Positions 15,501-38,463 of a stretch of 64,000 bases of DNA are shown here, piece after piece (the stretch's first letter is position 1; the number at the start of each line of letters is the position of its first letter). Made by a program: the position numbers and the translations under genes. Below the pieces are notes generated by a model. The model made no database searches and was not told the DNA's origin. It worked only from the letters and a program-made list of their open reading frames with translations. The stretch comes from a virus. Location: positions 45,875 to 109,874 of the IMG/VR virus record IMGVR_UViG_3300034418_007243; one strand, 5' to 3'.

Positions 15501-17679
15501 TAAAAATGAAATGCTTCAAGAGCTGCATAAATTAGGAATGTTCTTTTCTTTAGAAGAGCTAGAAAATTTAGAACAACAAATGAAAGATGGTGTTCTTACT
15601 TTAGAAAGCTTTCCTAAAACATTTTATTATACAAATGTAGATACTGTAGAAGATGAAAAGCTTTCAAGTCTTCAAGTACAAAGAAATACAGAGGACTATC
15701 AAAAAGCTATTGCGCTAGTTAAAAAATATTTTCCTCACATAACTGGAATTCCTATAGAGCAAGAAACTATAGTTGATCCTTACTCAGCTTCAGTAAGATT
15801 AAAGCTTAAAGATGATAATAGAACTTTTGAAGATTTAGCAAAACAATTTGGTTTTGAAAATAAAGAAAAGGTTCCTTTAAAAGATGTTTTACAAGCTATT
15901 ATAGATAGCAAATATGCAACAGCTCAAGAAAAACTTTTAGCTTCTCAATTATTAACATTAGCTAGTGATACAGAAACAATTACTTTTGCTACTAATATGG
16001 CTATGCCGGGTGAATATTCTGAAAGTTTACAAACTAGAATAGATCCTAGATATTCAGCAAGTAATTATGCTAAATCAAAGAAAAAATTAAGAACAGAAGA
16101 TTTTGGTGTTTTTGAATATGAAGGAGCAGATTTACCTATAGAAGTTACCATTCTAAGATATGAATTAGAAAGAAGAGTTTTTGAATCTTTAAATACTAAT
16201 ACACAGTTTTCTGAAAATATTAATGAGTTAATGAAACTTGCTGACGCTAGGTTTACAGAAATGGCTAACGCTGATGTAAATAGTGTAAATTTTGCAATAT
16301 TTCCTTTCTTACAAGATAAAGCTGCTTTTATACAAGGAGCAATGACTAGCAGAGATTTTCAAAAATTTTTAGCATCTATTCCTTATAAAAGCACAAAAGA
16401 ACAAAAAAATAGTTGGCAAAAGTTTGTTGACTTTGTTATAGATTCAATTAAACAAACGCTAGGTGGAAAGCCCAATGGTTCTGCTCTTAATGAAGCTCTT
16501 ACTCTTATTACATCTGAGATAGGTATTATAGAAGAAGAAAAAGCTGCTCCTGTTACAGGAGAAACAAAAGCAGAAGAAGCAGTTATTATAGAAGGTCCTA
16601 TTTCTATTACAAATAATCCAAAGAGCATGTGGTCTGAGCATAAAGAATTTATGACTCAGATGGTTAATTTATTTAAACAACAGAGTAAAGAACAAGAAGC
16701 TAAAGGAGAAACACCGCTTGGTAGATTTACAGATAAAAATGGAAATAATTTATCAGATTATGCAATCTTAACAACTACTCAATTTAAAACCTGGTGGAAT
16801 AAAAACTTTAATGCTGCTAAAGATGAGGCTATAAATAACTATAATACTCAATTAAAAGAAGCAGTAGAATTAGAAGAACTTGAAAGTAAACAACAAGAAG
16901 AACCTACTCCTAAATCAGAGCAAAGAAAAAGTAGAAAGGATGATATTAAGACTAGGGAGATGGTAAACAAACTATTAGGATTACGGTTTACAAGACCTCA
17001 GATTGCAGCCATGAGTGTTGATGATGCTATTAAATTTATAGAAGATAACATTCCTTACCCTGAACTAGTAAAAAGAAGAGAAGAAAAAGAAAGATTAGAA
17101 GAATTAAAAGCTAAACAGAAAAAACAAGAAGCTGTACAAAACATTATTGATAAATTTAATAGTGTTACAAGCTTAGATGAATTAACATCAGTGTATGATA
17201 CAATTTTAAATGCTATTGAAGAAAATGATAAAAACATTGTTGAAGCACAAAAAGATGTAAATATAGAACAATTACGTTTAGAAACTCTAAAAAGATTGGC
17301 TGAAGAAGTAAGCTTTGATCAATTAAAAATTGGTAAAGCAATGCGTCTTAAAAAGAATAAAAATGCTTATATTATAGAGGTAAGTGAAGATGGTAAAACA
17401 TATACTGCTCAATATGATGATGGCACTTCCAATACTGTAGAAATTACAGAAGACAATATAAAAGATTTAGTTCAAGCATTTTATAGTGAAGCTTATGAAC
17501 AGACAAATGAAGTTGAATCAGAAATTACTGAAGATGAAGAAAAAGTTTTATCTGAATCTAAAGAAATATTTGATAATTCATCTGAAGGTATAAAAGAAGC
17601 TATGGATTCTGCTAAGAAGCTTGGCAAAGAACAAGCTAGAAAAAACTTTTTAGACGCAATAAATAATAGATGTAAATAA
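12589..17679 (+). CDS. Giant ejected protein 1, with membrane-inserting Gly/Ala segments and a degenerate zincin-like domain
   Basis: 1696 aa. VVLGATTAALGISSPITGGATAGAAAVTAA and EGLQETAQE...FASGFLMGGIAG. The TAA overlaps the next ATG (TAATG). Confidence 0.65.
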   Translation: MANGDPTQDMSITPPGLSEGPVDLSAGVPMNTLPQNLEAPRVEDYYPDRFKQDPIASLPPTPEKVNALIDNFVYNTEAKENPLKATSVLGNFHTSDYGQNQFMDRYYNHNKFSELGFSPFLDNETRYNEASSGWDEFERAFGQWTNLSGVAFSDAMSFGDSLTDRKNAEQFKRVMDIGSSTDTGKFATNLFLNSGYTMGIMAELIAEEVVLGATTAALGISSPITGGATAGAAAVTAATMAERARRGFGKITHAWDAMKNVGKTLSSFKDVNKAREYFTSAGKATGRFLNPLENTARFLKQKKSIAGIHEGTKLAKLKTATSGFAEFYKDVRNVRLAFGEGALEGGMVENEMIDHLTKDWLDKHPGQKMSDSAAQAIRNAARDAGVTTTLTNTPVILLSNKIVLDGILRPGQFSKKIIGEVIETGGKKLLFNPRKGVKDVYSILPKGFINKTWAYAKDPRLALSAAATGVIKYSSANFAEGLQETAQEIISGTNEDYYTAQYKGDVTKGGYYSFVAQNVNKQFSPEGFEIFASGFLMGGIAGPISNIAGRTMSTATELFDPNSDLRIRGFKIGEKEDGTGKYITGGFLGKALGIGTGTQEQISAAEKLDRKRKDALDDVVNTLNEFYDINKKQYLNPELENLLSQKQLNSLMQKAQEEGDVKAYNDFKDTSGFKHVITALKYGRLGTHIQQLKELKNLTEEEIKQQYGISKTKFDASIDNAVERAERIQYRYDKAKELFPNPYNPQNYRGNEAFLMLIGEKAWNDAVEEFIFNQDSFDNAVKRTEKILSKAKDKAKLKNTSFSKFEALFSLSKTQAEINTLKQEIEALEESGVKKTDPKLRSLKKQKEYLERFADAMEQTKIERAESKTESITPKTKKKAERAFKLYVNLLAVESGDFVANEDLTDVFEDLLDYAALSERKQKAMDAANLLTNPQAFFERVERNKEINSKIFANKKAEIKESLEQYLKAMDKNEMLQELHKLGMFFSLEELENLEQQMKDGVLTLESFPKTFYYTNVDTVEDEKLSSLQVQRNTEDYQKAIALVKKYFPHITGIPIEQETIVDPYSASVRLKLKDDNRTFEDLAKQFGFENKEKVPLKDVLQAIIDSKYATAQEKLLASQLLTLASDTETITFATNMAMPGEYSESLQTRIDPRYSASNYAKSKKKLRTEDFGVFEYEGADLPIEVTILRYELERRVFESLNTNTQFSENINELMKLADARFTEMANADVNSVNFAIFPFLQDKAAFIQGAMTSRDFQKFLASIPYKSTKEQKNSWQKFVDFVIDSIKQTLGGKPNGSALNEALTLITSEIGIIEEEKAAPVTGETKAEEAVIIEGPISITNNPKSMWSEHKEFMTQMVNLFKQQSKEQEAKGETPLGRFTDKNGNNLSDYAILTTTQFKTWWNKNFNAAKDEAINNYNTQLKEAVELEELESKQQEEPTPKSEQRKSRKDDIKTREMVNKLLGLRFTRPQIAAMSVDDAIKFIEDNIPYPELVKRREEKERLEELKAKQKKQEAVQNIIDKFNSVTSLDELTSVYDTILNAIEENDKNIVEAQKDVNIEQLRLETLKRLAEEVSFDQLKIGKAMRLKKNKNAYIIEVSEDGKTYTAQYDDGTSNTVEITEDNIKDLVQAFYSEAYEQTNEVESEITEDEEKVLSESKEIFDNSSEGIKEAMDSAKKLGKEQARKNFLDAINNRCK

Positions 17680-20600
17680 TGAGATGTCCACTTAATCCAG
17701 ATATAGATTTACAAGCATTTAGAGTAGCTGTATTTGCAGATATGTATGATATGGCAGAAAGCCCTGAAGCTTTTGATGTTGATCAATACATGCAAGAAAT
17801 GTATGAATTAGTTTTTGAAAACACTAAAGATCCTGCATTAGCTCTAGATTATGCGCGTTTTATACCTGAAACTACTCTTAGTCTTTTAAATACAGATAAA
17901 AAACTTAGTGGCAAATTAATGAATGAGAAAGGTTTAAACCTAAATTCTCTAATGCAAAAAGTTATTGATATAAGTAACTATAATAAAGATCAATTAAAAG
18001 TTCTTAATAATCAGTTAGCTGGTAAAGTATCTTTAAAAGATACAGCAAAAAAAGGAAAAGAAGTTGCAAAGCGTAAAAACCAAGAAAAGAAAAATGAAAA
18101 TCAGTTATCACTATTTGATCCTGAAATAATAGAAGAAGCAGCTAAAGAAGAACCTTTACCTACATTAACACCTTCTTTGTCACCAACACTTGTTGAGGAA
18201 GCAAAAGGTATATTAGATGCACAAGGTTCTGATGAAATGATTTATCCTCTTACAGCTTTTGCAACAAGAAATGTTGATAGACCAACAAAACATTCAAAGT
18301 TTATATCTGCTGTTCAAAAACAATTGCTAAGATTATTTAAAGAAAATAAAACAAATAATATTTTTTTAGCAGCTGTACCTACTAGTGAAATTATAGCAAA
18401 TCTTGAAAATAAAGATAGTGTTTACTATAATTTTTTCAGAAGTATGGATGCTGCAGAACAACAAAGTTTTATAGAAAATGATAATGGTTTAGGTGTTATA
18501 TTAGTTGTAACAGATCAAGCAGGTCTACCTATAACATTTAATGATCAAGGATTGCAGTCTAAAGAAGACTTATCTTCCCCAGCTTTTCTATTTTTAAATA
18601 GTCCAAAGTTTGATACTAAAGGACAAATTAAACTTAGTGAAAATGATATTGCAGCAATTGAAGAAATAAAACAAGTTTACAAAAAACATAATCAACCAGA
18701 GCTTGCAAAAAAAGCTGAACAGTTTTATATAGAACAGCTTAAGTCTATTAATAAAATTAGAGAATATGTTAGAGCTAACCCTAAAGAATCTGTTAAGTTT
18801 ACAATTAACGGAGGATTTTTAGGAGCTTATCAAAAGTCTTCTATAAAAAATAAACAACCTCTTGCTGGTTTAGAAGAGACTATAAATTTACAAAGAGGAA
18901 AGTATAATAGCATGTATTTTACTTCATCAGATTTGGGAGGTAAAACTATAGTGCTTGAAAGACCTACTTTGTCTGAGGCTGATATGTTAGAAGATATACT
19001 TAGTCTTTTAGTGGATGATATAACTTTAAATGGTAAACCTATATCTTCTACTGAGCGTAAGAATTTATTCTTCCAATTTTATTATAGCAAAAAAGAAACA
19101 GTTCAGCTTGCATCAGAAAATGGAAAAGCTGTTTTGTATTTTAAATATAAAGCTATTCAACTTGATCAATTAAATGATCAACAAAAACAAACTTTAAAAG
19201 AAGAACTTAGAAATTATTTTACAGAAATAAATGATAAAGGTTATCCTGAACAACATACTTATTTAAAAAGTTCTCCGCAAAGTGCAAATAAACAAATTAG
19301 TGATATCAGTATTGAAAACGGAGTTCTTACATTAACTAATAAACCCTATGAACAGTTTGTTAAAGAAAAGTTTTATAGCCTATATAAAGTAGAAAATGGA
19401 AGATTTGCTACATCAAATCCATATATCACATTTGAATTAGCACCTGAAAGTGAAGGTCAAGTTTTTTTAGAAAATAAAAAAACACAAGAAGAATTAATAA
19501 ATGAATTATTAACTGTTGCAGAAGAAATTGAAGAAATTCAAAATAGAATAGATGAACGTCTTTCTATAAAAAAAGATACTCAAAAATCAAGCATTAAAGA
19601 ACAAGGAAAGTTGTTTAGAATTTTTGAAAAAGCTTTTTATGAAGGAAATAATAAAAGACATAATGATATATCTAATGAACAACTTCAACAACTATCTCCA
19701 GAAACAAAAGCTTATTTAATAGACTTATATGAAAGAGCAAAACCTTTTAATGAAGAATATCAAAGAATAGGTAAAGTAAGAGATGTTCAAACCAACAAAG
19801 AAATAATAACAGATGAAGATAAAATAAGATATATAACAGCAAATCATTTTGGTGGTTTTGGTAGAGCTGCTAGGTTAGGTTCTGCTGCTGATTATGTGTT
19901 TAGGCAAGACCCTAAGTATAAAGATTTAATCTTTGCTATTCCATCTCAAGATGTTTTAAATAATATAAATAAGGTTTTCAATGCGAAGCTTACAAGTGAA
20001 GAGTTAAATATTGGCAGTGTAAAAGAAGAACAAGTAAAAGAAGAACCTAAAAAACCAACTCCTTCTTATTCATCAAGATTAGCAGATTTTGACACAAAGT
20101 TAGATAAAACACTTAAAGTAAAAGGTTTAGATGTAAAAGCAACAAAACAACAAATAAAAGAAGCTAAAAAGTGGTATGAAAAAAGTGCTATAAGTCAATT
20201 TTTTAAGTTTGAAGAAATTTTTGATATGGTTAATACTGATGATGGTTCAGCTGTAGCAAGATGGACATTAGCAGGTATTACACTTTACAAAGGTTCTGAT
20301 TACTCTGATTTATATCATGAGGCTTGGCATGCTTTTACACAGACATTCATGAATTCTTTACAAAGACAAGAATTATATGAAAAATTAAAAACTAAATCAG
20401 GAACTTTTACAGACCATCTTGGTCAAACAGTAACGTTTAAAGATGCTAGTGATTTACAATTAGAAGAACATCTTGCAGAACAGTTTAGAGAGTATATGCT
20501 GAATCCTTCTAGTAAGAAAATTACTAAAGAAGAAAAGTCTTTATTTAGAAGAGTTTTACAAGCTCTTAGAAAATTATTTGGTGATAGAGAACTTGATTTA

Positions 20601-23600
20601 GAAATTACAAACTTAGAAGCTGATTTATTTGTTCAGGATATCTTTGAAAAGCTCCGTATTGGTAAATTATATGAATATACTTTTGATATAGAAAATTTTG
20701 CTTTTCCCTCTTTGGATAAAGGAGGAGTTAAAGCATTGCAAGGAAGTACTGGAGTTCAACAATTAAACTATAACAATACTATGAAAATGGTTGGTGTTAT
20801 AGATTCTCTTATTTCAGAATGGATAGATTTAAAAAATGCTGCTTTAAATAGAGATCAAATAGATGCTTTATTTGATATTAATGATGAAATAGATAAAGCT
20901 GGTGAAAATATTAAACGTATTGAAGAGTTAGAAAAACAAAAAGAAGAACTTCTAACACTAGCTAGACAACAAATAAAAGCTACATATAAATATACTTCTG
21001 CAGTAACTAAAGATCCAAATGCGCTTTTAGCTGCTTATAATCATGCAGCTTATAGAATAGCAAGAATTATAAGTAATAAACAAGCTCTTTATGCAGCAAC
21101 AGAAAACATTGTAGAAAAAGAAAAATTAAAAAAACAATTAGATCTTCTAGAATGGTCACTAAAAAACTTTGGTAATTTAGAAAACATTAAACATGTAACT
21201 AACAGGCCTGGTGAAAATAGTAGAGGTCTTATTTCTATGCATATAGAAAGATCTGCTACGTTTTTTAATCAAGATGTTAAAGTTTCTCTTGATTTTGAAA
21301 ATGTAACTGAAGAACAACTTTTACAAGGAAAGTTATTTGAAAAAACAGGCAATGACTTATCTATGGTAGAAATTGCTAAGCCTGAAGTTATATTCTTTCT
21401 AAAGCAATTATATTCTTATAACAAAGAAGGTTTAGTTGAAAGAGATGATTTTGGTTTACCTAAACAAGCTGATTTTGGTCAAACCTGGAATAAACTTGCA
21501 AGGCTTTTAGTAAATACGCCTAACATTGATCAGATGTATCTAAAGCTACAAGCAGCATCTGTAAAAGATCCTCAGATAAAACAATTACTAAGTAAACTAG
21601 GAAGAACTAACACTGACTCTAATTTAACTCAAAGTTTAATAAGTAATTTCTTTAATACTTTTGGCATGGCTAATGTGCCTCTAATACAAACTACTATTAG
21701 AAAAGTTACTAAACAAAATCCAGATGGAACAACATCAACACAGACTATAGCTAGTACAGGTAGAGCTTTTAATTCAAACAATAAAATAGCTAAAGATTGG
21801 GAAAGACAATTTAAAGAACCCAGTCATAAAAGCAAATATATAAAGAGAGATGAAAAAGGTAGTTACTTAGATGTTGATGCCTTCTTAAATGATTACAATT
21901 ATGCAAAAGCTAAAGGTAACCTTTGGCAGTTTTATAATGATTTAGGTATTCTATTATCTGATAATGAAGATTTAAAAACAGAACTGCAAGATCCTAACAA
22001 TAAAAAACTTTACTCAGATAAAGTAAGTTTTATTTTTACAACTCTAAAGAAAAACTATCAAGAAAAAAATAAAAGATTAGCTGATTTAAATGAATTAGCT
22101 AAATCTGAAAGTGTTATCTATAATAATCTTATAAATTTAGAATCTAAGTATTCTAATGTGTTTACAGATTTTATGGTTACCAATGCTGAAGGTAATGCTC
22201 AGTTTGAACACACACTTAATAATACTATTACTATGATGGTTAATGGTATTAATAATGTAGAAAATTATTTGGATATATTAGCTATACCACATTTAGCTCA
22301 TCTAAATGTTGATTTAAATCCTTTTGCTGAATCTTCTATGTGGTTAAAAAGCATGTTTAATTTAGAAGGTACAGCAGATACAAATCCTAAGTATGGTGAA
22401 AGAAGAAAAGATACTTATGGTAATGATATAAAATTAGAAGTTGTAAACTTAAGTGGTATTATAACTCTTGAAGGAGAAGAAAAAACTCAAGAAGGTATAG
22501 CTAGTGCTAGAGCAGATGAATTTACTAAGTTTATTCTTGATATGCATTTAGGTTATGATAATAGCTTTGAATTAATGCGTCATGCTGATAAATCAACTTC
22601 TTATGGTATTAGATTAACTGGTGAAACTTTAGGAAGCAAAAGTAGAAGAGATTCTTATTTATCTCCTCAAACATTTAAAAAAGATAATGTTCAAGTAGCT
22701 TTTGATATTAAAAATAGAATTGTTCCTTATTTAATAGCGGAACTTAAAAGAATGAGAATAGCTAGAACAGCTCTCAAAGATAATATAAAAGATTTTGATT
22801 TTGCTTATTTAGAAAGAGGTAAAGACTTTGTAATATTTTCAGGTTATCTAAGTGCAGATACTCAAGCTTTGTTAGAAAAAGAAATTGTAAAAAATGAATC
22901 TCTAGCTTTAGAAGATTTTGCAGAAGCTATTAGTAATGATATATTTGAAAAGGAAATATTAAAAGATACTAGATCTTATTTTAATAAACAGTATGTTAAA
23001 GTAGATAAACTTTTTAAAGCAACAGATGAATTTATCTCAGATAATATTGTTAAAAACTTTATTGGTAAAAGTAATATAACTAAAGACGAAGCTAAAAAAG
23101 CTATATTACAATCACAAATAGTCAATTCTTTTATAAATAATTTAGAGAGCATGTCTTTTATATACGGAGACATTGCTCAGTATAAATTAGACAAAGAAGA
23201 CTTTCACAAACGTAATGCTGGTGCTGGTTCAACAGGTAAATTATTCCGTACAGATAAAGGTATGCAAGATTTTATTAACGGAAGAATAAATCAAACTTAT
23301 GCTGCTAAATTAAAAAATGAACTAGGTCTTGCAAGTTTAAGAACTTATGATGGCACATTTAATACAGCTGTTATATCAGATAATAAAATACCTAGTGTTT
23401 ATGCAGAACTAAGACAATTAGGAGAAGCATATAATGAAATGGAAGAAGCTGATGGTCAAGGTATTATTGCTTTTGATTCATATAGAACTTTAAAAATAGC
23501 AGAAGGTTCTTGGCTTCCAGAACAAGAAGCTTTATATCAAGATATTATAAATGAAAGAGAAATAGACGAAACTAAAATTCAATACTATTTTCCTGCATAT

Positions 23601-26600
23601 AAAACACAATACTGGGGACCTTTAAAAACAGATTTAGAAAGAATTGGATTACCTGTAACAGCTTTTCATAAATTTTCTTTATATCCAGCAATACCTAATG
23701 TTATTAAAGGTAAAAACATGGAGATTCTTCATAAAAGAATGATTCAAGAAGGTATTGATTATGTAGTATTTAAATCAGGTTCTAAGGTAGGTACTGTAAC
23801 AGAAACTCAAAGCGGTACAAAACAAGTTTATAAAAAAGATTCAAGAGAGCTTGTCTTTGATAACAATTATGATCCTAGTAAAGATAAACCTTTCTTTACT
23901 AAAAATGTGATCTTTTTAGAGTACTTAAAAAATCAATTAGAAATAAATGATAAAGCTAAAGGTCAAACAATTTTCTCTACTCAGTTAAGAAAATTAGTTA
24001 TAGATGGTCTTATGGAGTTTGGTGTACCTGTTGATTATAAAACAAATATAAAAGATCCAGAAAAAAGAATTAAAGCTTGGGAAAATGAAAAGAATAAAGA
24101 AGATAGCTCTCCTTATTATAAATTAATTAGAAATTATGAGCAAACTATTGAAGCTTTAACAAAGCTTGAAAAAGATAAACTTCTTAAAGAATTAAATTGG
24201 ACAGAAAATGAAGATGGTACTTTATCTGGTGATAAAAAGAAACTAATAGACTTTGTTGTTAGAGAATTATCTAGAAAAGAATTAGGAGAACATGAGTTAG
24301 AATATTTACTTAAGGGAGGAGATCTTTCTTTATCTCTTAATGCTGCTGACGTAGAAAAAATGCTAAATGCTATAGTTGTTAAAAAACTAGTAAAGCAAAA
24401 AGTAAATGGAGAAGCTTTAATTCAGGTTGCTAATACCTTTATGGAAGATGCAGTAAAAGCTAAAGGTTTAAAGTTTAAAAATCCTACTAAAAAACAAATT
24501 GAAGAGTTTGGGTCTAATGATCTACCTTTTTATACTAAAAATAAAGATGGGTCTACAAATGCTATGAAAGTTAAGGTAGCATTACAGAATGACTTTAAAA
24601 ACTTACTCTTTTTAAAACATAATGATGGGCAAGAAATAGGTAGTATAGAGAGACTTAATGAAATGATTAAAGATGAAGAGTGGTTAAATAAAGGTGATCA
24701 TAGAAAGATGATTACTATGACTGCTGTTCGTATTCCTGTTCAGGGTCTTAACTCTATGGAGTTTATGGAAGTTTATGAGTTTTTACCTGCTTCTGCAAGC
24801 GGTACTATTATACTTCCCTCAGAGATTGTAGCTAAGTCTGGTGCTGACTTTGATATAGATAAGTTAACAGTTATGATGCCTAATATTAAGGCTAAAGTAA
24901 CAAAAGAAAATAAAGATAAAATCTTTTGGAAAGAGTTAGCTCAAGAGTTTCCTGATTTAGATTTTAGTTATAATAATGTGCAAATGATATTTGACGCATT
25001 AAAATCTCCAGAAACATACAAATTTTTAAATGAAGAAGATATAGCTGTAGCAAATGCTATTAAATCAAAAGCAAATGTAGTAACAGCTGAATATTCTACA
25101 GGTGATAATAAATCAGGTCTTGAAAATAAATTATTAGAAAGCATTGTATCTATACTTTCTTTACCTGTTAACCGTGAAGCTTTACTTACACCAAATAGCA
25201 CAGCTCTATTTACAGAAGGTAAAAATGAAGGAGATAAATCATTGGTTGATGCTTTAGCAAAAGATGAAGAGTATAATGGAACTACTACTTTTGAAATTGC
25301 ATATAATTTAAAGAAACACCAGGAAAATAGTATTGGTAAAGCAGCTCTTGGTTTGGGTGCTGTAGATAATACCTATAATACTTTAATGAATAGAGTTGGT
25401 GCTTATCTTAATAAAGAAGTAGGTTCTACAGAAGAAGAATTTATTCAATCAATATTTGGTAAAATTCCTGAAAGTGAACAAAAATATTACCAGGCTGTAA
25501 GAAAAAACTTTAGAAGACAAAAAATATTTTTGCCTCATAATACAATTGATGGCAATATATCTTTATCACATTCTACTAGTAAAGGAAGTAATCAATCTAT
25601 CTCAGGTGTAATTAATCAAATGATTAATGGATGGGTAGATGTTGCTAGAGGAGCTTGGATTTTTAATGTACAAGGAAATAAAGAAGTAGCACCTACACTT
25701 TTATTTATGATTCAAGCAGGTGTTCCAGTTGATACAGCTGTATATTTTGTGTCTAATCCATTAGTAAAAGAATATGTAAATCAGATTAGAAAAGCTCAAA
25801 GTCCTTTTGCTGAGTATATGAATATGGATCTTGAGAACCCTAATGCTTTTAAAGCAGCAGCTTTAAGAAATATTTTTACTAATCCTGAGTTTGGTTTTAG
25901 ATTGCCTTATAAGATGAACGGGGTTTTTCAAAAGGAAACTGATATGTCTAATATTAACCCTATGCTAAATCAGATGAATATTAGTCGTTTAGCTAGAGTG
26001 TTAGCTGTTCAAAATGTCAACAAACAATTCAATACTGAAACATTAAAAGAAAGAGCTGAAAATTATAAAGAAGGTGATCCTATTACTGAAGCTGACAGAG
26101 ATGCTTTCTTACACTTTTTGGAGTTAGAAGAAATGGGTAAAGGGGTAAGAGATATCAAAATGAATATGAATTTTGATACAAACCCTGATCAATCTTTATA
26201 TGCAGCAGAAGCAAGAATAAAAAGAAAAGGTTCTCTTGAATATGATAACAGATTTCCTTCATTTATAATTGAAAAATTAGAAAATGAATCTCCTATATCA
26301 GCATTTTATACGCAACCTTTTCAAATAAAATTAATAGGAGGTTTATTTCCTTTAAGAAATCATAAACGCATTAATAAGTTTATAGATGATGTAGAGCTAG
26401 ATGAAATAAAAAGAAATGGATGGAATGATAGAGAATCTTTTGCTAAAGATTTTAAAAATGAATTTATTAATTTTATTTATCAAAATGAGCTAAGAAATTT
26501 TGATGTAAGAAAACTATCTAAACCAACAACTAATACTTTTAATGGCTTTGAAATAGAAAGAGTAAATGTAGCTTCTTTAAAACATGGAGCAGCTTTTAAA

Positions 26601-29600
26601 GATGGTAAACTTTTTATAAGCATGACTGATTTAGCAAGACAGTATGCAAGCATAACAAAAAAGTATAACGATCTTCCTATAAGTGAAACCTTAGCTGCAA
26701 AATTACAGAAAGATTATCAACAAACAGGATTAGCTCCTATATCTCCATTACAGTTTAGAAACTTTGAAGAATATGTAGAGTTTGTTATAGAAAGAGAAAG
26801 ATTACGTTCTGTATTATCAACTGAAAAAATAAATAATAATTTACAATATCAATTTTTATTAGAAGAGATAAAAGATTATTATGAAAATAATACTTATGGA
26901 AAAGCTAAAATAGCTAATTATTCTCCAGAAGTTAAAGAAAGATTTATTGTAAACTATGCTAAAGAAACTTTTCTAAAAAATAAAGCTTTGCAAAACATAT
27001 ATAACAATGACTATATGTTTAAAAATACAGGGCAAAATTTATTTCAAAAATCATATGCTGATAGATTTTTAGATTTAAACAACTTACGTTTTCCACAATT
27101 AAAAAATGAATTTCTTCTACTAAATTATCTTGAGTATGTAGAGTCACCTACAGGATATAGAAATTTAAAACTTAGCAATCCTAAATTAACAGCAGATCAG
27201 AAAAATGTTTTCTTTGAAAATTTAGAAGATTTAACTGATGAAAAAACTCTTAAAGAAAAGTTTCCTTCATTAGAAGACAATGAAATAAAATATATCATAG
27301 ACTTTTTTAATGAGTTTAGTCTTTATGCTTATTTACAAACCGGGTTAAATACAAAATCTTCTTTCAATTTATCTAGTATAGTAGATCCTGAAGAATTTAC
27401 TATTATAGCTGAAGAAGCTAAAGCTAAAGCTCTTAATATATTGAATTCAGAATCTATTTATTCTGAAGAGCTTTTACAAGATTTTTACAGAGTCTTTAAT
27501 AGAACTAATGGTAATAAAGGTAGAGCTGTAAAAGGTAGAGGTGTTAACTATAAAATTCAAGGTACAATCTTTACAGAAAAAGGATTAGAATATTTAAAAA
27601 TAACTCCAAAAACAAAATCTTTTGTTGAAGATGTAGAATTAATTGAAACTCAACCTATAGTACAAAGTACACGTAAAACATACTCAGGAAAAGTAACTAG
27701 CTTACAACCTAATCAAATATTTGTATTTGGTTCTAACCCGCTTGGTATTAATGGAAACCCTGCTAAAGGTACAGGTGGAGGAGCACTAGTAGCATATCAA
27801 ATTGCTGGAGTGAAGCAAGGAGAAAAAATGGATAATAAACTTTCTGATTCTGGAAAGGCTTGGGGAATAACAACGGTTACAGCTCCTGGTAAGAAAAAAA
27901 GTAAAACTCCACAGCAAATTATAGAAGGTATTAAAAAACTATATGAATATGCTAACAATAATCCTAGAATAGAAGTATTAGTAGCTGATTATTCTGGACC
28001 AAGAAATCTTAATGGTTATACAGGTCAAGAAATGGCAGATATGTTTTCTAATGCAGGACCTATACCGTCTAATATAGTATTTAATGAGAATTTTGATAAG
28101 TTAATTGCTACTCAACCTACAGTACAAAGTGTTACTACTCCTAAAAATAGATTTACAGTAAAACCAAAACAGGCTGCTGACAAGAAGGCTAAAGTTAAAG
28201 CCAAAATTGCTACTCAGTATATAGGTTTTGCTGAAGGTATTTTTGGAAGCAGTACAGCTTTATATGCAGAGCAGATTGGTCAGTATGCTAATACTGGTAA
28301 CTATAGTTCTGATGATGTAATATTTGTATCAATACCTGGTAAAAGAGGTAGTGCAGAATTGCAAAAACAAAATCAAGATAGAACCATAAAAGAAGCTATT
28401 AAAGCTGTAGAAGCAGGAGCTACTATTATTACAGATAATAAAGCTTATATTGATTCTAGCTCTTACAATACAGGAGAAAAAAGATTGTTTGCTAATATGC
28501 AAGAAAAAGGATATACTTATTCTGAAGTAACGGTAGATGGTCAAATTTTAGGTACTTGGTCTAAACCTACTCAACCACAAGACAGCAATCCTAATATAGT
28601 TAAGAATAGTAATGGATTGATTGTTATTAAAGACCAGTTAAATAATGAAGAAGGTGCAGCTATGGTAGAAAGTTTTAAACCTGTTATAGAAGAAACATCT
28701 TTTAAACAAACTGGAGGCTCTGTTTCATGGGGTTTTGGTTTACAATGGATGAGGGTAAATAGTATGTCTACTGAACAACGTAAAGGTTTAATAATAGGTA
28801 AACAACTTAACGGTAAAGAGATTACTCAAGAAATGAAAGATAAATTCATTAACGGTGCTGATGCTCAACAATTAGGTATGCCTTTATACGGATATACAAG
28901 TATAGATAAGAATGGTAATCCTCTTCCTAATATACCTACTGAAATTATAACAATGTTGGCTCAAAAAGGTATAGATATATCTGAGTATGATGCTAGTTAT
29001 AATTCTGTTTATGATAAAAAAGATGGTGGTAGTCTTATTATTCATCAGGATAATACTGAGCTAAATGAATCACCTATAATAACTATCTCTTTAGGTAGAC
29101 CTATGAAGTTTATAACTTATGAGTTAAATGATCCTAATGATTTTAACATAACTGATCCTAAAAATACAGCTTATAATATAGTAAAAAATGTAATAAGCGG
29201 GCAAGCTTTAAAAAATAAAATTATAGATAAACCTTTTAAATATGGAGAATTAACACCAGGAAATATAATGGATTATGCTAAACAGCTAGATAAAATTGAA
29301 GGTGGTGATAAATATTCACAACAAGTTTTAGATGCTCTTAAAGCTCAGTTTAAAGGAAAGGCTACTACTACAGAATATACTTTGGAGAATGGAGCTATAT
29401 TAGTTTTTTCAGGTAATAATAGAAATGTGTTGCATGAAATAGTATTTGATGAAGCTAGTGATAAAAAACCAATGCCAGAAGGTTTTCCTGAATTAACAGT
29501 AACTAAAAATAGATATGATAAGAAAACAGATTCTTTTCTTCCTGTACAAGTAAAAACAGATAACTATAGAGTTGTTCTTACTTTAAGAAAAGTACAAGGA

Positions 29601-30275
29601 ACTACAGTAAATAATATAGATACAGCTATGTTAGAAAATACTGTAAAAACACCAGCTGAAAGCAAAGCAACTGAAGGTAAATATCAACCTGCAAAAGATG
29701 TATTTGATATTGATAGCGCTCTTGTAATAGAAGGAATAGAGCAAAATCCTGATGTTATTTTTGTTTATGAAGGAGCAGAAACAGAAGGTCTTGGAACTGG
29801 TCAAGGTGAAGGTGCAAAACATAAAAAAATAAAAAATGTTAGCACAAACAATGTATTACCTCTTACAGTGAATAGAAATTATGCTCTTCAAAATACTTTT
29901 AAAGATGTTAAAGATGAAGCTGGTAATATGGTTATAGATCCTAAACTTAAAGAACTAATAGATAATGATATACAAACACTATTAGCTTATGGTGATAGAC
30001 CTATCAGATTTAGTAGTAAAGGTTATGGTAAAGAGTTAATTAAACAAGATAAAAAAAGAAATACTCCTATGCCTGCACCACAAGCTTTTATATATTTGTC
30101 AGAGCAATTACTAGAAAAATTTGGTTATATTAATCCTGGCTTTTTAAGTTTAGATATGTCTGGAAATAAACCAGGTATTGAAGCAGTACAAGAAGCTCAA
30201 GAAATATCTGATGCAGAAATAAAAGAATTGAATAGAGAAGCTGTATTAGATTTAATTAAACTGTGTAAATCATAA
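17679..30275 (+). CDS. Virion RNA polymerase polyprotein (crAss/phi14:2 gp66-like two-barrel RNAP) with N-terminal zincin and C-terminal macro-like, unknown and AlkB-like domains
   Basis: 4198 aa. RIPVQGLNS (24729) and KSGADFDIDKL (DFDID at 24846-24860). Also DFHKRNAG, ADGQG, HKFSLYP and STQLRKL. HEAWH (20316) with EEHLAE. HQD...H...RxxLTxR in the AlkB part. Confidence 0.9.
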   Translation: MRCPLNPDIDLQAFRVAVFADMYDMAESPEAFDVDQYMQEMYELVFENTKDPALALDYARFIPETTLSLLNTDKKLSGKLMNEKGLNLNSLMQKVIDISNYNKDQLKVLNNQLAGKVSLKDTAKKGKEVAKRKNQEKKNENQLSLFDPEIIEEAAKEEPLPTLTPSLSPTLVEEAKGILDAQGSDEMIYPLTAFATRNVDRPTKHSKFISAVQKQLLRLFKENKTNNIFLAAVPTSEIIANLENKDSVYYNFFRSMDAAEQQSFIENDNGLGVILVVTDQAGLPITFNDQGLQSKEDLSSPAFLFLNSPKFDTKGQIKLSENDIAAIEEIKQVYKKHNQPELAKKAEQFYIEQLKSINKIREYVRANPKESVKFTINGGFLGAYQKSSIKNKQPLAGLEETINLQRGKYNSMYFTSSDLGGKTIVLERPTLSEADMLEDILSLLVDDITLNGKPISSTERKNLFFQFYYSKKETVQLASENGKAVLYFKYKAIQLDQLNDQQKQTLKEELRNYFTEINDKGYPEQHTYLKSSPQSANKQISDISIENGVLTLTNKPYEQFVKEKFYSLYKVENGRFATSNPYITFELAPESEGQVFLENKKTQEELINELLTVAEEIEEIQNRIDERLSIKKDTQKSSIKEQGKLFRIFEKAFYEGNNKRHNDISNEQLQQLSPETKAYLIDLYERAKPFNEEYQRIGKVRDVQTNKEIITDEDKIRYITANHFGGFGRAARLGSAADYVFRQDPKYKDLIFAIPSQDVLNNINKVFNAKLTSEELNIGSVKEEQVKEEPKKPTPSYSSRLADFDTKLDKTLKVKGLDVKATKQQIKEAKKWYEKSAISQFFKFEEIFDMVNTDDGSAVARWTLAGITLYKGSDYSDLYHEAWHAFTQTFMNSLQRQELYEKLKTKSGTFTDHLGQTVTFKDASDLQLEEHLAEQFREYMLNPSSKKITKEEKSLFRRVLQALRKLFGDRELDLEITNLEADLFVQDIFEKLRIGKLYEYTFDIENFAFPSLDKGGVKALQGSTGVQQLNYNNTMKMVGVIDSLISEWIDLKNAALNRDQIDALFDINDEIDKAGENIKRIEELEKQKEELLTLARQQIKATYKYTSAVTKDPNALLAAYNHAAYRIARIISNKQALYAATENIVEKEKLKKQLDLLEWSLKNFGNLENIKHVTNRPGENSRGLISMHIERSATFFNQDVKVSLDFENVTEEQLLQGKLFEKTGNDLSMVEIAKPEVIFFLKQLYSYNKEGLVERDDFGLPKQADFGQTWNKLARLLVNTPNIDQMYLKLQAASVKDPQIKQLLSKLGRTNTDSNLTQSLISNFFNTFGMANVPLIQTTIRKVTKQNPDGTTSTQTIASTGRAFNSNNKIAKDWERQFKEPSHKSKYIKRDEKGSYLDVDAFLNDYNYAKAKGNLWQFYNDLGILLSDNEDLKTELQDPNNKKLYSDKVSFIFTTLKKNYQEKNKRLADLNELAKSESVIYNNLINLESKYSNVFTDFMVTNAEGNAQFEHTLNNTITMMVNGINNVENYLDILAIPHLAHLNVDLNPFAESSMWLKSMFNLEGTADTNPKYGERRKDTYGNDIKLEVVNLSGIITLEGEEKTQEGIASARADEFTKFILDMHLGYDNSFELMRHADKSTSYGIRLTGETLGSKSRRDSYLSPQTFKKDNVQVAFDIKNRIVPYLIAELKRMRIARTALKDNIKDFDFAYLERGKDFVIFSGYLSADTQALLEKEIVKNESLALEDFAEAISNDIFEKEILKDTRSYFNKQYVKVDKLFKATDEFISDNIVKNFIGKSNITKDEAKKAILQSQIVNSFINNLESMSFIYGDIAQYKLDKEDFHKRNAGAGSTGKLFRTDKGMQDFINGRINQTYAAKLKNELGLASLRTYDGTFNTAVISDNKIPSVYAELRQLGEAYNEMEEADGQGIIAFDSYRTLKIAEGSWLPEQEALYQDIINEREIDETKIQYYFPAYKTQYWGPLKTDLERIGLPVTAFHKFSLYPAIPNVIKGKNMEILHKRMIQEGIDYVVFKSGSKVGTVTETQSGTKQVYKKDSRELVFDNNYDPSKDKPFFTKNVIFLEYLKNQLEINDKAKGQTIFSTQLRKLVIDGLMEFGVPVDYKTNIKDPEKRIKAWENEKNKEDSSPYYKLIRNYEQTIEALTKLEKDKLLKELNWTENEDGTLSGDKKKLIDFVVRELSRKELGEHELEYLLKGGDLSLSLNAADVEKMLNAIVVKKLVKQKVNGEALIQVANTFMEDAVKAKGLKFKNPTKKQIEEFGSNDLPFYTKNKDGSTNAMKVKVALQNDFKNLLFLKHNDGQEIGSIERLNEMIKDEEWLNKGDHRKMITMTAVRIPVQGLNSMEFMEVYEFLPASASGTIILPSEIVAKSGADFDIDKLTVMMPNIKAKVTKENKDKIFWKELAQEFPDLDFSYNNVQMIFDALKSPETYKFLNEEDIAVANAIKSKANVVTAEYSTGDNKSGLENKLLESIVSILSLPVNREALLTPNSTALFTEGKNEGDKSLVDALAKDEEYNGTTTFEIAYNLKKHQENSIGKAALGLGAVDNTYNTLMNRVGAYLNKEVGSTEEEFIQSIFGKIPESEQKYYQAVRKNFRRQKIFLPHNTIDGNISLSHSTSKGSNQSISGVINQMINGWVDVARGAWIFNVQGNKEVAPTLLFMIQAGVPVDTAVYFVSNPLVKEYVNQIRKAQSPFAEYMNMDLENPNAFKAAALRNIFTNPEFGFRLPYKMNGVFQKETDMSNINPMLNQMNISRLARVLAVQNVNKQFNTETLKERAENYKEGDPITEADRDAFLHFLELEEMGKGVRDIKMNMNFDTNPDQSLYAAEARIKRKGSLEYDNRFPSFIIEKLENESPISAFYTQPFQIKLIGGLFPLRNHKRINKFIDDVELDEIKRNGWNDRESFAKDFKNEFINFIYQNELRNFDVRKLSKPTTNTFNGFEIERVNVASLKHGAAFKDGKLFISMTDLARQYASITKKYNDLPISETLAAKLQKDYQQTGLAPISPLQFRNFEEYVEFVIERERLRSVLSTEKINNNLQYQFLLEEIKDYYENNTYGKAKIANYSPEVKERFIVNYAKETFLKNKALQNIYNNDYMFKNTGQNLFQKSYADRFLDLNNLRFPQLKNEFLLLNYLEYVESPTGYRNLKLSNPKLTADQKNVFFENLEDLTDEKTLKEKFPSLEDNEIKYIIDFFNEFSLYAYLQTGLNTKSSFNLSSIVDPEEFTIIAEEAKAKALNILNSESIYSEELLQDFYRVFNRTNGNKGRAVKGRGVNYKIQGTIFTEKGLEYLKITPKTKSFVEDVELIETQPIVQSTRKTYSGKVTSLQPNQIFVFGSNPLGINGNPAKGTGGGALVAYQIAGVKQGEKMDNKLSDSGKAWGITTVTAPGKKKSKTPQQIIEGIKKLYEYANNNPRIEVLVADYSGPRNLNGYTGQEMADMFSNAGPIPSNIVFNENFDKLIATQPTVQSVTTPKNRFTVKPKQAADKKAKVKAKIATQYIGFAEGIFGSSTALYAEQIGQYANTGNYSSDDVIFVSIPGKRGSAELQKQNQDRTIKEAIKAVEAGATIITDNKAYIDSSSYNTGEKRLFANMQEKGYTYSEVTVDGQILGTWSKPTQPQDSNPNIVKNSNGLIVIKDQLNNEEGAAMVESFKPVIEETSFKQTGGSVSWGFGLQWMRVNSMSTEQRKGLIIGKQLNGKEITQEMKDKFINGADAQQLGMPLYGYTSIDKNGNPLPNIPTEIITMLAQKGIDISEYDASYNSVYDKKDGGSLIIHQDNTELNESPIITISLGRPMKFITYELNDPNDFNITDPKNTAYNIVKNVISGQALKNKIIDKPFKYGELTPGNIMDYAKQLDKIEGGDKYSQQVLDALKAQFKGKATTTEYTLENGAILVFSGNNRNVLHEIVFDEASDKKPMPEGFPELTVTKNRYDKKTDSFLPVQVKTDNYRVVLTLRKVQGTTVNNIDTAMLENTVKTPAESKATEGKYQPAKDVFDIDSALVIEGIEQNPDVIFVYEGAETEGLGTGQGEGAKHKKIKNVSTNNVLPLTVNRNYALQNTFKDVKDEAGNMVIDPKLKELIDNDIQTLLAYGDRPIRFSSKGYGKELIKQDKKRNTPMPAPQAFIYLSEQLLEKFGYINPGFLSLDMSGNKPGIEAVQEAQEISDAEIKELNREAVLDLIKLCKS

Positions 30276-36266: not shown

Positions 36267-37004
36267 TTACTTATCAAATTTAGTTAAGTTATATTTTTTT
36301 ATAATGCTTCTAAGTTTGCACTGATAGCAACTATTCATACAGCTTGTAGCATAAAGATACTTTCCTTTAGCTCTAAATTTTTTAGATTGTTCTACTGTAC
36401 TGCCACCACATAAAGCTTTAATCCAAGATTTAACTGTAGGTTTTCCTTTTATTCTAGGAGCATATACTCTTGTTAAAAGAGATACATGACTTCTTAGCGA
36501 AAACCAATGAGATTTAAATTTAGTAAACTTATCATCTAGATTATCATCAGCTGCTACTAAATATCCTAACTCCTGACCACGGTACTTATGACCAAAAAGA
36601 TTATTGCCTTCTACGGCTAATCTTGATATACCAAAGTTACTTTCTAATATGGCCTGTGCTATTACAATACTAGGTTTTATTTTAGGATAAGACTTGACTT
36701 CTTTCTGTGTAGCTTCACCTATAAAATTAATGAACTCTTGAATATGTATTTCTTTCCAAGTTTTAAATCTTGATCTTACAATATAATCATTATACTTTAT
36801 ATGTTCTCCTCTCCATTCAGAAGCAGTTAACCATTTTCTATTTACTGGTAATGCAAAAAGATTGTACTCTGTATCTTTGCTGACATCATATCTGCCAGCA
36901 TAAACTTCAGTACCAAAATCTTCTTTAACTTCTTTTTTATTAGTTGATATAAAATTTAAACTAAATAAGTATATAGCTATAGTAGCTAAAAACTTCTTAG
37001 TCAT
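36267..37004 (-). CDS. GH73 glucosaminidase (FlgJ-like) peptidoglycan hydrolase with N-terminal signal/anchor; candidate endolysin
   Basis: IVIAQAILESNFGISRLAVEGNNLFGHK and YATS motifs; N-terminus MTKKFLATIAIYLFSLNFIS. Confidence 0.85.
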   Translation of the reverse strand: MTKKFLATIAIYLFSLNFISTNKKEVKEDFGTEVYAGRYDVSKDTEYNLFALPVNRKWLTASEWRGEHIKYNDYIVRSRFKTWKEIHIQEFINFIGEATQKEVKSYPKIKPSIVIAQAILESNFGISRLAVEGNNLFGHKYRGQELGYLVAADDNLDDKFTKFKSHWFSLRSHVSLLTRVYAPRIKGKPTVKSWIKALCGGSTVEQSKKFRAKGKYLYATSCMNSCYQCKLRSIIKKYNLTKFDK

Positions 37005-37284: not shown

Positions 37285-37587
37285 CTAATCTTTAACAAAT
37301 TGTCCATCAACCATTTTACCTGTTCTATCTTTAATAGTATGCCAGGCTGATTCAAGACAATCTTCAAGGTTCATATCTTGCATGTGAGCTTGTATCAATA
37401 GTGTTACCATTATATCTCCAAGCGCATCTTTAATTTCTTCTTTGTCATCTGTTATTATAGCATGACATAGTTCTGATAATTCTTCTACAGTTTTCATAGC
37501 TTGTGCATAAGGTTTAGGATCTTTTAGTATTCCTTTTTCTTCTGCCCATGCTATAATCAAACATTCTAATTCATAATAGTCCATCAT
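37285..37587 (-). CDS. MazG-like all-alpha NTP pyrophosphohydrolase
   Basis: KTVEELSEL...IKDALGDIMVTL...AWHTIKDRTGKMVDGQFVK. Confidence 0.85.
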   Translation of the reverse strand: MMDYYELECLIIAWAEEKGILKDPKPYAQAMKTVEELSELCHAIITDDKEEIKDALGDIMVTLLIQAHMQDMNLEDCLESAWHTIKDRTGKMVDGQFVKD

Positions 37588-37629: not shown

Positions 37630-38463
37630 TTAAAAAATATATCTTATAGTATTTAAAGGAAAATACTGACTATATATCTTTTTAAATTTATCAATATATT
37701 TAGTTTTATTTTTTATTGGATAACGCATTACTCCTGATTGATTTTTTATTTCATTAGAAAACCTCATAAGTTCTCTAGCTTCTGGAGATGCTTTTTGCAT
37801 TTGTAATGGATGATTAGTTAATGCTATTACCTCACATTTATTTACACCAGCTAGTTCTTTTACATTACAAAATAAGTCATCATACTCATATGTCCAGCCT
37901 GGTACAAATATTACTGGGCTATAGTTTATATGTACTTCCCATCCTAAATCAATTAATCTATCTATATCATATATTCTAGATATAATTTTTTGCATTTTAG
38001 GTTCTAGAATATCTGAATATACTTGAGGCATTAAACTAACTCTTACTCTTGGTTTTTTGTTAAAGTTATTTACATTAAGTTTCAACAGACCAGGGTATTT
38101 AGTAGCCATTGTTGTATTTAATCTTGGATGATCATCATACCGTTTAAGATAATTATATAAAGATTCAGGAAGATGTTTTTGCATAAGTACAAGATCTGTG
38201 TTACATGCAATATCTACCATAGTATATACAGGGTCCTGTTGATCTGGTACTTTTGTATAACCTTTTTCCCACTCTACTACAGATTGAAATATGTCATCTA
38301 CATTAGTATTTACAAATACTCTTTTACCATTATACCTAGACATGTAACAGTAAGTATCAACACAACCTCCGTAACAACCATATATTAGATTGGGTGCTAT
38401 ACAATTAGCACTATTATTATTTGGTTTTGTTATTAAAGTTTTTGTTTTTTGAGTTTTTATCAT
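37630..38463 (-). CDS. Spore photoproduct lyase-like radical SAM protein
   Basis: GCYGGCVDTYCYM cluster motif. DIACNTDLV resembles the SplB H-donor Cys motif. Also ATKY, RVRVSL, ISRI, GWEVHINYSPVI and GWTYEY. Confidence 0.8.
   Translation of the reverse strand: MIKTQKTKTLITKPNNNSANCIAPNLIYGCYGGCVDTYCYMSRYNGKRVFVNTNVDDIFQSVVEWEKGYTKVPDQQDPVYTMVDIACNTDLVLMQKHLPESLYNYLKRYDDHPRLNTTMATKYPGLLKLNVNNFNKKPRVRVSLMPQVYSDILEPKMQKIISRIYDIDRLIDLGWEVHINYSPVIFVPGWTYEYDDLFCNVKELAGVNKCEVIALTNHPLQMQKASPEARELMRFSNEIKNQSGVMRYPIKNKTKYIDKFKKIYSQYFPLNTIRYIF

Follow-up and report, generated by a model that had tools for sequence, protein, structure and literature searches.

An AlkB-family dioxygenase domain as an exchangeable cassette in a crAss-like virion RNA polymerase homologue

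The final 64 kb of a complete viral genome (IMG/VR record IMGVR_UViG_3300034418_007243, 109,874 bp with direct terminal repeats) encode P0001, a giant homologue of the crAss-like virion RNA polymerase (RNAP). We analyzed this stretch of 64,000 nucleotides, positions 45,875 to 109,874 of the record, and refer to it as the window. Here, we report that P0001 contains an AlkB-family Fe(II)/2-oxoglutarate dioxygenase domain that, judged by its ligands and its modeled fold, is intact and competent as an enzyme. The domain lies inside the polymerase chain and is, by comparison with related proteins, one of three linker-bounded exchangeable cassettes and not a terminal fusion. We propose, with a probability of roughly 0.55, that within the first minute of infection it frees the single-stranded template of the phage itself, or its early RNA, of N-alkyl lesions.

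The AlkB domain

The original prediction for this DNA had read an AlkB-type dioxygenase fused to a virion RNAP and suggested a search with the 2OG-FeII_Oxy_2 model. This model, PF13532, recognizes the isolated domain with 39.3 bits and the whole protein with 34.2 bits, against a curated gathering cut-off of 31.2, and is the sole Pfam match of P0001. The cut-off is also passed by the sister protein P0002 and by P0003, and again when the phage genome itself is searched. The motifs on which the prediction was built are all in frame: YDASYNSVY at 28986-29012, LIIHQDNTE at 29034-29060, PIITISLGRPMKF at 29073-29111, LENGAILVFSG at 29382-29414, RNVLHEI at 29421-29441 and RVVLTLRKV at 29568-29594. The elements of the domain are the following.

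28596..29603, + strand: cassette 3, AlkB-family Fe(II)/2-oxoglutarate (2OG) dioxygenase domain, P0001 residues 3640-3975, assigned by Pfam, hhalign, model and structure comparison
29043, 29049 and 29433, + strand: iron triad His3789, Asp3791 and His3919, aligned to His131, Asp133 and His187 of E. coli AlkB
29568, 29586 and 29010, + strand: 2OG-binding Arg3964, Arg3970 and Tyr3778, aligned to Arg204, Arg210 and Tyr122
+ strand: lid aromatics Trp3690 and Tyr3737, at the positions of AlkB Trp69 and Tyr76
29124..29369, + strand: three-helix insertion in the AlkB jelly-roll, residues 3816-3897, 82-90 amino acids (aa), seen as a gap by hhalign, where E. coli AlkB has a short loop around Arg161

The HxD...H...RxxxxxR layout of AlkB had thus been read correctly, since its ligands align to those of the E. 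coli enzyme. In an hhalign comparison of a 15-sequence homologue profile with E. coli AlkB (probability 94%, E 1.4e-7), HQDNTE pairs with HQDKDE, NRNVLH with the region of His187, and RVVLTLR with that of Arg204 and Arg210. The iron triad, both arginines and Tyr3778 do not vary in any of 25 homologues, whose identity to the query is 35-70%, and the two lid aromatics are invariant or nearly so. This invariance argues for selection on catalysis. Tyr3737 is equated with Tyr76 by the hhalign alignment and Trp3690 with Trp69 by sequence pattern only, while the equivalent of Asn120 is displaced by one position in the alignment (Asn3775/Ser3776).

Simpler searches do not reach this relationship. A single-sequence phmmer search of the domain against the PDB sequences found no AlkB, the distance being too great, and an integrase that it matched was set aside as a chance match. 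A profile search of the same sequences reached AlkB at E 0.14 only, so that hhalign and structure comparison were needed.

The AlphaFold2 model of the domain, built on the 25-sequence alignment, has a mean predicted local distance difference test score (pLDDT) of 85.4 and a predicted template modeling score (pTM) of 0.83. Both the double-stranded beta-helix core, whose absence was to have spoken against the original prediction, and the N-terminal nucleotide-recognition lid are present in it. In a Foldseek search of the PDB the top matches are all AlkB or ALKBH proteins: E. coli AlkB ranks first (E 8.8e-10), and ALKBH6, ALKBH5 and ALKBH1 come next. VIA-align superimposes model residues 1-335 on AlkB residues 12-214, lid included, with a Z score of 19.1 and a root-mean-square deviation of 2.3 A; 189 of the 203 AlkB residues are paired, with an identity of 22%. 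The scores are lower for ABH2 and ABH3 (Z around 15) and for ALKBH5 (Z around 14).

The domain is larger than E. coli AlkB because of three insertions. The longest had been predicted at about 80 aa; it is present and is modeled as three helices, but the distance between PMKF and LENG is 90 residues. The helices lie at domain positions 192-206, 224-235 and 239-251 and have pLDDT values of 80-94. In the homologues the insert is mostly 71-92 aa long (35 aa in one clade) and mildly basic, with a net charge of +1 to +7, and its mean identity is 41% compared with 70-85% in the core. Of the two further insertions, one lengthens the lid by about 40 aa and the other, about 20 aa long, forms a hairpin ahead of the last strand. 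Twelve weak matches to the helical insert in P0034 (5594 aa), at about 9 bits each, were discarded as spurious, this being a plakin-repeat protein.

The carrier polymerase

The gene for P0001 lies on the + strand in the late/structural block of the genome.

17679..30275, + strand: P0001, crAss-like virion RNAP homologue carrying the AlkB module, an uninterrupted open reading frame (ORF) of 4198 codons, 4198 aa
23238..25802, + strand: RNAP catalytic region, residues 1854-2708, homologous to phi14:2 gp66 residues 876-1666
24846-24860, + strand: DFDID metal-binding motif, residues 2390-2394, aligned to the DFDID of gp66

The polymerase that phage phi14:2 packs into its virions and translocates into its host, gp66, is homologous to the carrier. 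BLASTP of P0001 against gp66 gives an E value of 3e-24 over 915 columns, with 23% identity in the core, and the aligned DFDID motif is residues 1361-1365 of gp66 (Drobysheva et al., bioRxiv 10.1101/2020.03.07.982082). The predicted fusion with a virion RNAP therefore stands as far as the homology goes; the place of the module had to be corrected from an end of the protein to an internal slot. By tblastn P0001 matches gp66, crAss001 and further crAss-like RNAPs, while a phmmer search of the polymerase region against the PDB sequences, the gp66 entry included, gave nothing. At least 1040 giant polymerase homologues are found in metagenomes. One close homologue, P0112 (3558 aa), carries the NCBI label of a Candidatus Hodarchaeales (Asgard archaeon) metagenome-assembled genome and is most likely phage DNA binned into it.

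The gene order can be compared with that of phi14:2. Three giant ORFs of 1696, 4198 and 1966 aa share one strand and stand in the order of phi14:2 g067-g066-g065, so that P0001, like gp66, lies between two giant genes of the same strand. The downstream ORF matches phi14:2 gp65 weakly (E 7e-4), and the upstream ORF gave no match to gp67. Gp65, gp66 and gp67 have been found in phi14:2 virions by tandem mass spectrometry (phi14:2 record). Gp66 is translocated into the host with the DNA and transcribes the early genes; in vitro it is an efficient enzyme on single-stranded or denatured DNA and a poor one on double-stranded DNA, and it is proposed to be self-inhibited late in infection (bioRxiv 10.1101/2020.03.07.982082). 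By analogy to gp66 we infer that P0001 is packaged and injected as well. The two proteins differ in that gp66 has 2180 aa and is without AlkB or any cassette, whereas P0001 has about 1000 additional N-terminal residues and a cassette slot of 665 residues.

A HEAWH (HExxH) motif is located at 20316-20330 on the + strand, residues 880-884 of P0001, in a region that the giant polymerases share at 25-58% identity. It is possibly a zincin-like processing site, although Pfam scans of P0001 found no match to a peptidase family. One relative, P0006, has a SprT-like domain.

The cassette slot

The AlkB module occupies the last part of a slot, residues 3325-3990, between the polymerase body, which ends at about residue 3324, and a conserved C-terminal domain.

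27639..27668, + strand: linker 1, LIETQPIVQS, start of the slot, copy 1 of a 30-nucleotide direct repeat
27717..28094, + strand: cassette 1, A1S_2505-family N-terminal domain, residues ~3347-3472 (NCBIfam NF049995 at 47 bits, cut-off 45; phrog_2072, E 7e-15)
28101..28130, + strand: linker 2, LIATQPTVQS, copy 2 of the 30-nucleotide direct repeat
28119..28568, + strand: cassette 2, alpha/beta module of no assigned family, residues 3481-3630
28569..28577, + strand: linker 3, Thr-Gln-Pro, directly ahead of the AlkB module
29649..30272, + strand: conserved C-terminal polymerase domain, residues 3991-4198 (208 residues), closing the slot

Each of the three modules in P0001 is preceded by Thr-Gln-Pro, and the two copies of the direct repeat, 90% identical, flank the A1S_2505 cassette. 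Thr-Gln-Pro linkers also bound AlkB in many relatives; P0020 has six where 0.38 are expected. The tripeptide is encoded as ACTCAACC(T/A) in 16 of 23 linkers, which in a genome of 30% GC may be plain codon bias.

One sign of exchange comes from the sister protein P0002, which is 97% identical to P0001 in the polymerase core and 99% identical in AlkB. The similarity stops at linker 1 and returns at linker 3, with different modules in between. Contigs from an unrelated lagoon metagenome (run X21) behave in the same way, diverging at 27638/27658 and returning at 28590. Other giant polymerases among the relatives carry helicase, NADAR, HD, AAA_33 and ART-PolyVal domains, and helicase domains of the PIF1/AAA_30 type are present in 7 of the 25 homologues with AlkB.

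Cassette 2 has no Pfam or NCBIfam match, but it recurs in at least ten other giant polymerases at 50-74% identity and in varying positions. Its AlphaFold2 model has a pLDDT of 87.2; an atlas search with the module gave no usable match, Foldseek found nothing under E 0.009 and a wide VIA-align search of the PDB nothing over Z 5.3, and the modeled structure may represent a new fold family. By BLASTP, nearly all of the 120 nearest polymerase homologues end in the conserved C-terminal domain, and it is kept in homologues of about 3400 aa without accessory domains, such as P0037. This domain has no assigned family; its only NCBIfam match is weak and adenylate-kinase-like (E 0.0055).

Distribution and exchange of the AlkB lineage

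The lineage is confined almost completely to giant polymerases. When only giant proteins were searched, 25 further carriers of 2.4-6 thousand aa emerged, each matching over the whole domain; in most of them a polymerase core is recognized through BLAST, a DFDxD motif or the two together. An exhaustive phmmer search of 1.84 billion representatives gave 17 matches only, namely giant proteins, shorter ones of 182-1446 aa and one spurious repeat protein. The shorter proteins may be fragments of giants or separately encoded forms. Among proteins of 127-618 aa a profile search found just two matches, each on a contig of less than 1.4 kb. A search of 185,579 prokaryote species genomes gave no relative of the lineage, and one of 50,697 GenBank phage records, gut crAss-like phages included, no AlkB match. 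One of the short proteins, P0033 (347 aa on a 1.3-kb contig), has a DNA methylase domain (PF01555, precomputed) directly ahead of a partial copy of the AlkB lineage (query positions 127-252); this could be a fusion of a methylase with a demethylase, or else a chimera of the assembly.

The position of AlkB varies between carriers, after the polymerase core in some and before it in others. AlkB domains are 50-60% identical between proteins with cores that are only 25-43% identical. For P0024 and P0025 the distance is 0.05 substitutions per site in AlkB and 1.58 in the core, and the trees of the two regions disagree. By these comparisons, AlkB is an optional cassette that is exchanged horizontally.

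A second AlkB lineage is found among the homologues that carry PF13532. It is without the long helical insert and 24% identical over the alignable N-terminal 190 residues. In P0088, the polymerase of another phage, such an insert-less AlkB adjoins an ART-PolyVal ADP-ribosyltransferase domain (residues 3319-3533 and 3759-3925). If the P0088 lineage is distinct, AlkB modules would have entered the giant polymerases more than once.

Genomic surroundings

The window has a GC content of about 30%, and the coding strand switches near 36.2 kb. The source phage was detected in oxic freshwater metagenomes in a search of public runs, which listed no RNA data set that contains it. Three genes on the - strand, two of them directly past the switch and the third just beyond the giant-protein block, have an assigned family.

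36267-37004, - strand: glucosaminidase-domain protein (PF01832, 66.7 bits), directly past the strand switch
37285-37587, - strand: MazG-type nucleotide pyrophosphohydrolase (PF03819, 32 bits), directly past the strand switch
37630-38463, - strand: 277-aa ORF with a match to PF20903, spore photoproduct lyase (52 bits; cut-off 27), a radical-SAM direct-repair enzyme, just beyond the giant-protein block

DNA methyltransferases of three major families were not found in this phage genome.

Discussion

In the mechanism that we favor, the polymerase would be synthesized late in infection, enclosed in the capsid and passed into the next cell together with the DNA, as can be supposed from phi14:2 gp66. 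There the AlkB module would refold in the cytoplasm, take up Fe(II), 2-oxoglutarate and O2 and would oxidatively strip N-alkyl groups of the 1-methyladenine (1mA) and 3-methylcytosine (3mC) class from phage nucleic acid. The likeliest substrate would be the single-stranded template DNA that the injected polymerase opens, and possibly also the early transcripts. Removal of such lesions, which could stem from spontaneous or environmental alkylation or from an attack by the host, would clear blocks to base-pairing ahead of any phage gene expression. Virion delivery, substrate and benefit are what we infer here, on top of the fold, the ligands and the place of the module.

Several observations favor the phage's own template as the target. 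The polymerase family prefers single-stranded templates, and the lesions that AlkB repairs arise preferentially in single-stranded nucleic acid and block pairing (PMC2553587). Helicase domains co-occur in 7 of the 25 carriers. AlkB needs O2 (PMC2553587) and can work in the oxic freshwater where this phage lives, and the GenBank phage records, which include gut crAss-like phages, gave no AlkB match. The homologue of spore photoproduct lyase suggests that this phage invests in the direct reversal of DNA damage, and the lack of DNA methyltransferases of three major families argues against a resetting of its own marks. The AlkB domains in the replicases of plant RNA viruses give a precedent (PMC2553587).

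A number of points weigh against this proposal. AlkB is not essential for such a polymerase, since the PF13532 domain is present in only 9-10 of the 120 nearest homologues and the next clade out, represented by P0037 with a 60% identical core, is without it; the function must therefore be dispensable. The module moves horizontally in the manner of conflict genes. In the approximately unbiased (AU) test the core alignment rejects a clade of the AlkB tree with p = 0.0003, while the reverse rejection is marginal (p = 0.045); the clades were picked after the trees had been viewed, and the test counts as supporting evidence only. In relatives the slot holds modules of a counter-defence type, among them NADAR, ART-PolyVal, SLOG-like and HD domains. 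The NCBIfam equivalogs of AlkB score far below their cut-offs (PRK15401 / TIGR00568, 21.2 bits against 267 and 20.3 against 231), and the phage domain is a separate lineage of the family and not an orthologue of the E. coli or other bacterial AlkB. The residue with which E. coli AlkB recognizes the exocyclic amine of 1mA and 3mC, Asp135, corresponds to Thr3793 in P0001, while Glu136 is retained. With Asp135 replaced by Thr and with three insertions that remodel the lid and the DNA-contacting loop, the substrate may differ from the classical one. Furthermore, little 1mA and 3mC arises in double-stranded DNA, and few AlkB substrates should therefore gather in packaged virion DNA. Finally, packaging, injection, processing and activity of P0001 are themselves predicted.

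These points have to be weighed as parts of other explanations. That the fusion is a chimeric assembly or a mis-joined ORF is hardly credible: the source is a metagenome-assembled viral genome, but 4198 codons are open in a complete genome with terminal repeats, about 25 divergent proteins from JGI, ENA, NCBI and Logan share the fusion, and an independent freshwater contig of 6563 nucleotides covers 26000-29650 with a single mismatch, which argues that the fusion is no assembly artefact. The main rival, possible if on balance doubtful, is that the injected AlkB is directed at the host or at its defenses. It could strip the host DNA of its protective methylation and thereby expose the chromosome to the host's own restriction, reprogram translation by demethylating tRNA or rRNA of the host, or reverse an immune alkylation of the incoming phage DNA, as NADAR reverses the ADP-ribosylation by DarT1. 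The slot does resemble a conflict toolkit, with modules swapped at linkers between 97%-identical polymerases and with NADAR, ART-PolyVal, HD and helicase domains in the proteins of relatives; the patchy distribution, the conflict between the module tree and the polymerase tree and the non-classical substrate suggested by Thr3793 and the insertions fit as well, and pre-packaging would suit an activity that is needed ahead of gene expression. Iyer et al. have proposed that AlkB-like enzymes of phages may reset methyl marks on phage or host DNA instead of serving in repair (PMC7824862). Against this stand the closest structure, which is the repair enzyme E. coli AlkB and not one of the N6-methyladenine erasers ALKBH5 and FTO, and the probably small number of injected polymerase copies, with which a genome-wide demethylation of the host in time is hard to imagine. 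Moreover, we know of no bacterial defense that N-alkylates phage bases. A bolder form of the counter-defense idea takes the slot as a catalogue of erasers, in which AlkB would point to an undiscovered immunity that N-alkylates or methylates incoming phage single-stranded DNA or early RNA. Such an immunity would be the alkylation counterpart of the DarT ADP-ribosylation that the NADAR modules of the slot would reverse. We consider this rather unlikely.

The module might also act late, when newly made polymerase or released AlkB would clean replicated phage DNA or late RNA before packaging, and its presence in the virion would be incidental. The location of the gene in the late block is in line with this, replication intermediates are rich in the single-stranded DNA that AlkB prefers (PMC2553587), and modules attached to a polymerase that is self-inhibited late, as proposed for gp66, would still be free to act. 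If delivery were irrelevant, however, the strict linkage to an injected protein would be hard to explain: the lineage was not found as a free-standing gene, the 17 representatives among 1.84 billion being giants or possible fragments and the prokaryote species genomes giving none, and we regard late action as unlikely. Least probable among the functional alternatives, and in our view improbable, is a role away from nucleic acids, either as a hydroxylase or demethylase of a host or ejection protein or as an idle structural spacer in the ejected chain. 2OG oxygenases are versatile, protein hydroxylase or demethylase roles have been proposed for ALKBH4 and ALKBH7, the substrate-reading Asp135 is not conserved, and the lineage has three insertions of its own, including the one of 82-90 aa at the DNA-contacting loop. 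Yet the iron and 2OG ligands are invariant in all 25 sequences, which speaks against an idle domain; the full nucleotide-recognition lid of E. coli AlkB can be superimposed; and Trp and Tyr are invariant at the base-stacking positions of Trp69 and Tyr76 (the Tyr by alignment, the Trp by sequence pattern only). Repair of the phage's own template or early RNA therefore remains the explanation that we prefer.

Relation to known systems

The nearest known relatives are different ones for the enzyme, the architecture and the concept. For the enzyme it is E. coli AlkB (PDB 4NID, 3I3Q, 2FD8), with which the phage domain shares the fold including the lid, the HxD...H triad, the equivalents of Arg204, Arg210 and Tyr122 and the HQDxxE motif. 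E. coli AlkB is a free protein of 216 aa, whereas the phage domain is embedded in a polymerase of 4198 aa and has insertions of about 40, 82-90 and 20 aa. For the architecture it is the AlkB domain that plant RNA viruses (Flexiviridae and others) carry in their replicase polyproteins; it is proposed to rid the viral genome of methyl lesions and has spread by recombination (van den Born et al. 2008, PMC2553587). Here too, the module sits within a viral polymerase polyprotein and has spread by recombination, and these domains are among the structural matches to the phage domain in BFVD. The plant viruses have single-stranded RNA and translate their replicase after entry, whereas the carrier studied here is a DNA-dependent, two-barrel RNAP of a DNA phage that, by analogy, would be packaged. 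The two AlkB lineages are unrelated beyond the family level.

For the concept it is the polyvalent protein, in which one injected polypeptide strings together disparate enzymes such as RNAPs, helicases and host-modifying enzymes (Iyer, Burroughs, Anand, de Souza and Aravind 2017, PMC5512222). P0001 resembles these proteins in that RNAP, A1S_2505 domain, unassigned module and AlkB are joined in one ORF, ART-PolyVal occurs in relatives, and delivery would be shared. The text of that paper is without AlkB, dioxygenase or crAss, and the linker-bounded slot of crAss-type RNAPs is not in it; AlkB would be an added domain type for polyvalent proteins. Free-standing genes for AlkB-like 2OG oxygenases occur sporadically in jumbo and other phages, where repair or the resetting of methyl marks has been discussed (Iyer et al. 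2021, PMC7824862). Such genes are separate and expressed after infection, in contrast to the present lineage, which is found only in virion polymerase proteins or possible fragments of them. Our search of the literature on crAss-like phages or Crassvirales together with AlkB, dioxygenase or oxygenase gave nothing relevant, but subscription journals were mostly outside this search and a prior description is possible.

If the proposed function is true, an enzyme for the direct reversal of base damage rides inside the particle of a DNA phage, attached to the first enzyme that contacts the genome. The first minutes of infection could then be pictured as a phase in which the template is cleaned or un-marked ahead of phage gene expression. 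With its insertions and the change of Asp135 to Thr, the lineage may also be of interest as a demethylase with an altered substrate range. More generally, the slot in crAss-type virion polymerases can be mined for new repair and counter-defense activities, and its contents could be used to infer the chemistries that hosts apply to incoming DNA.

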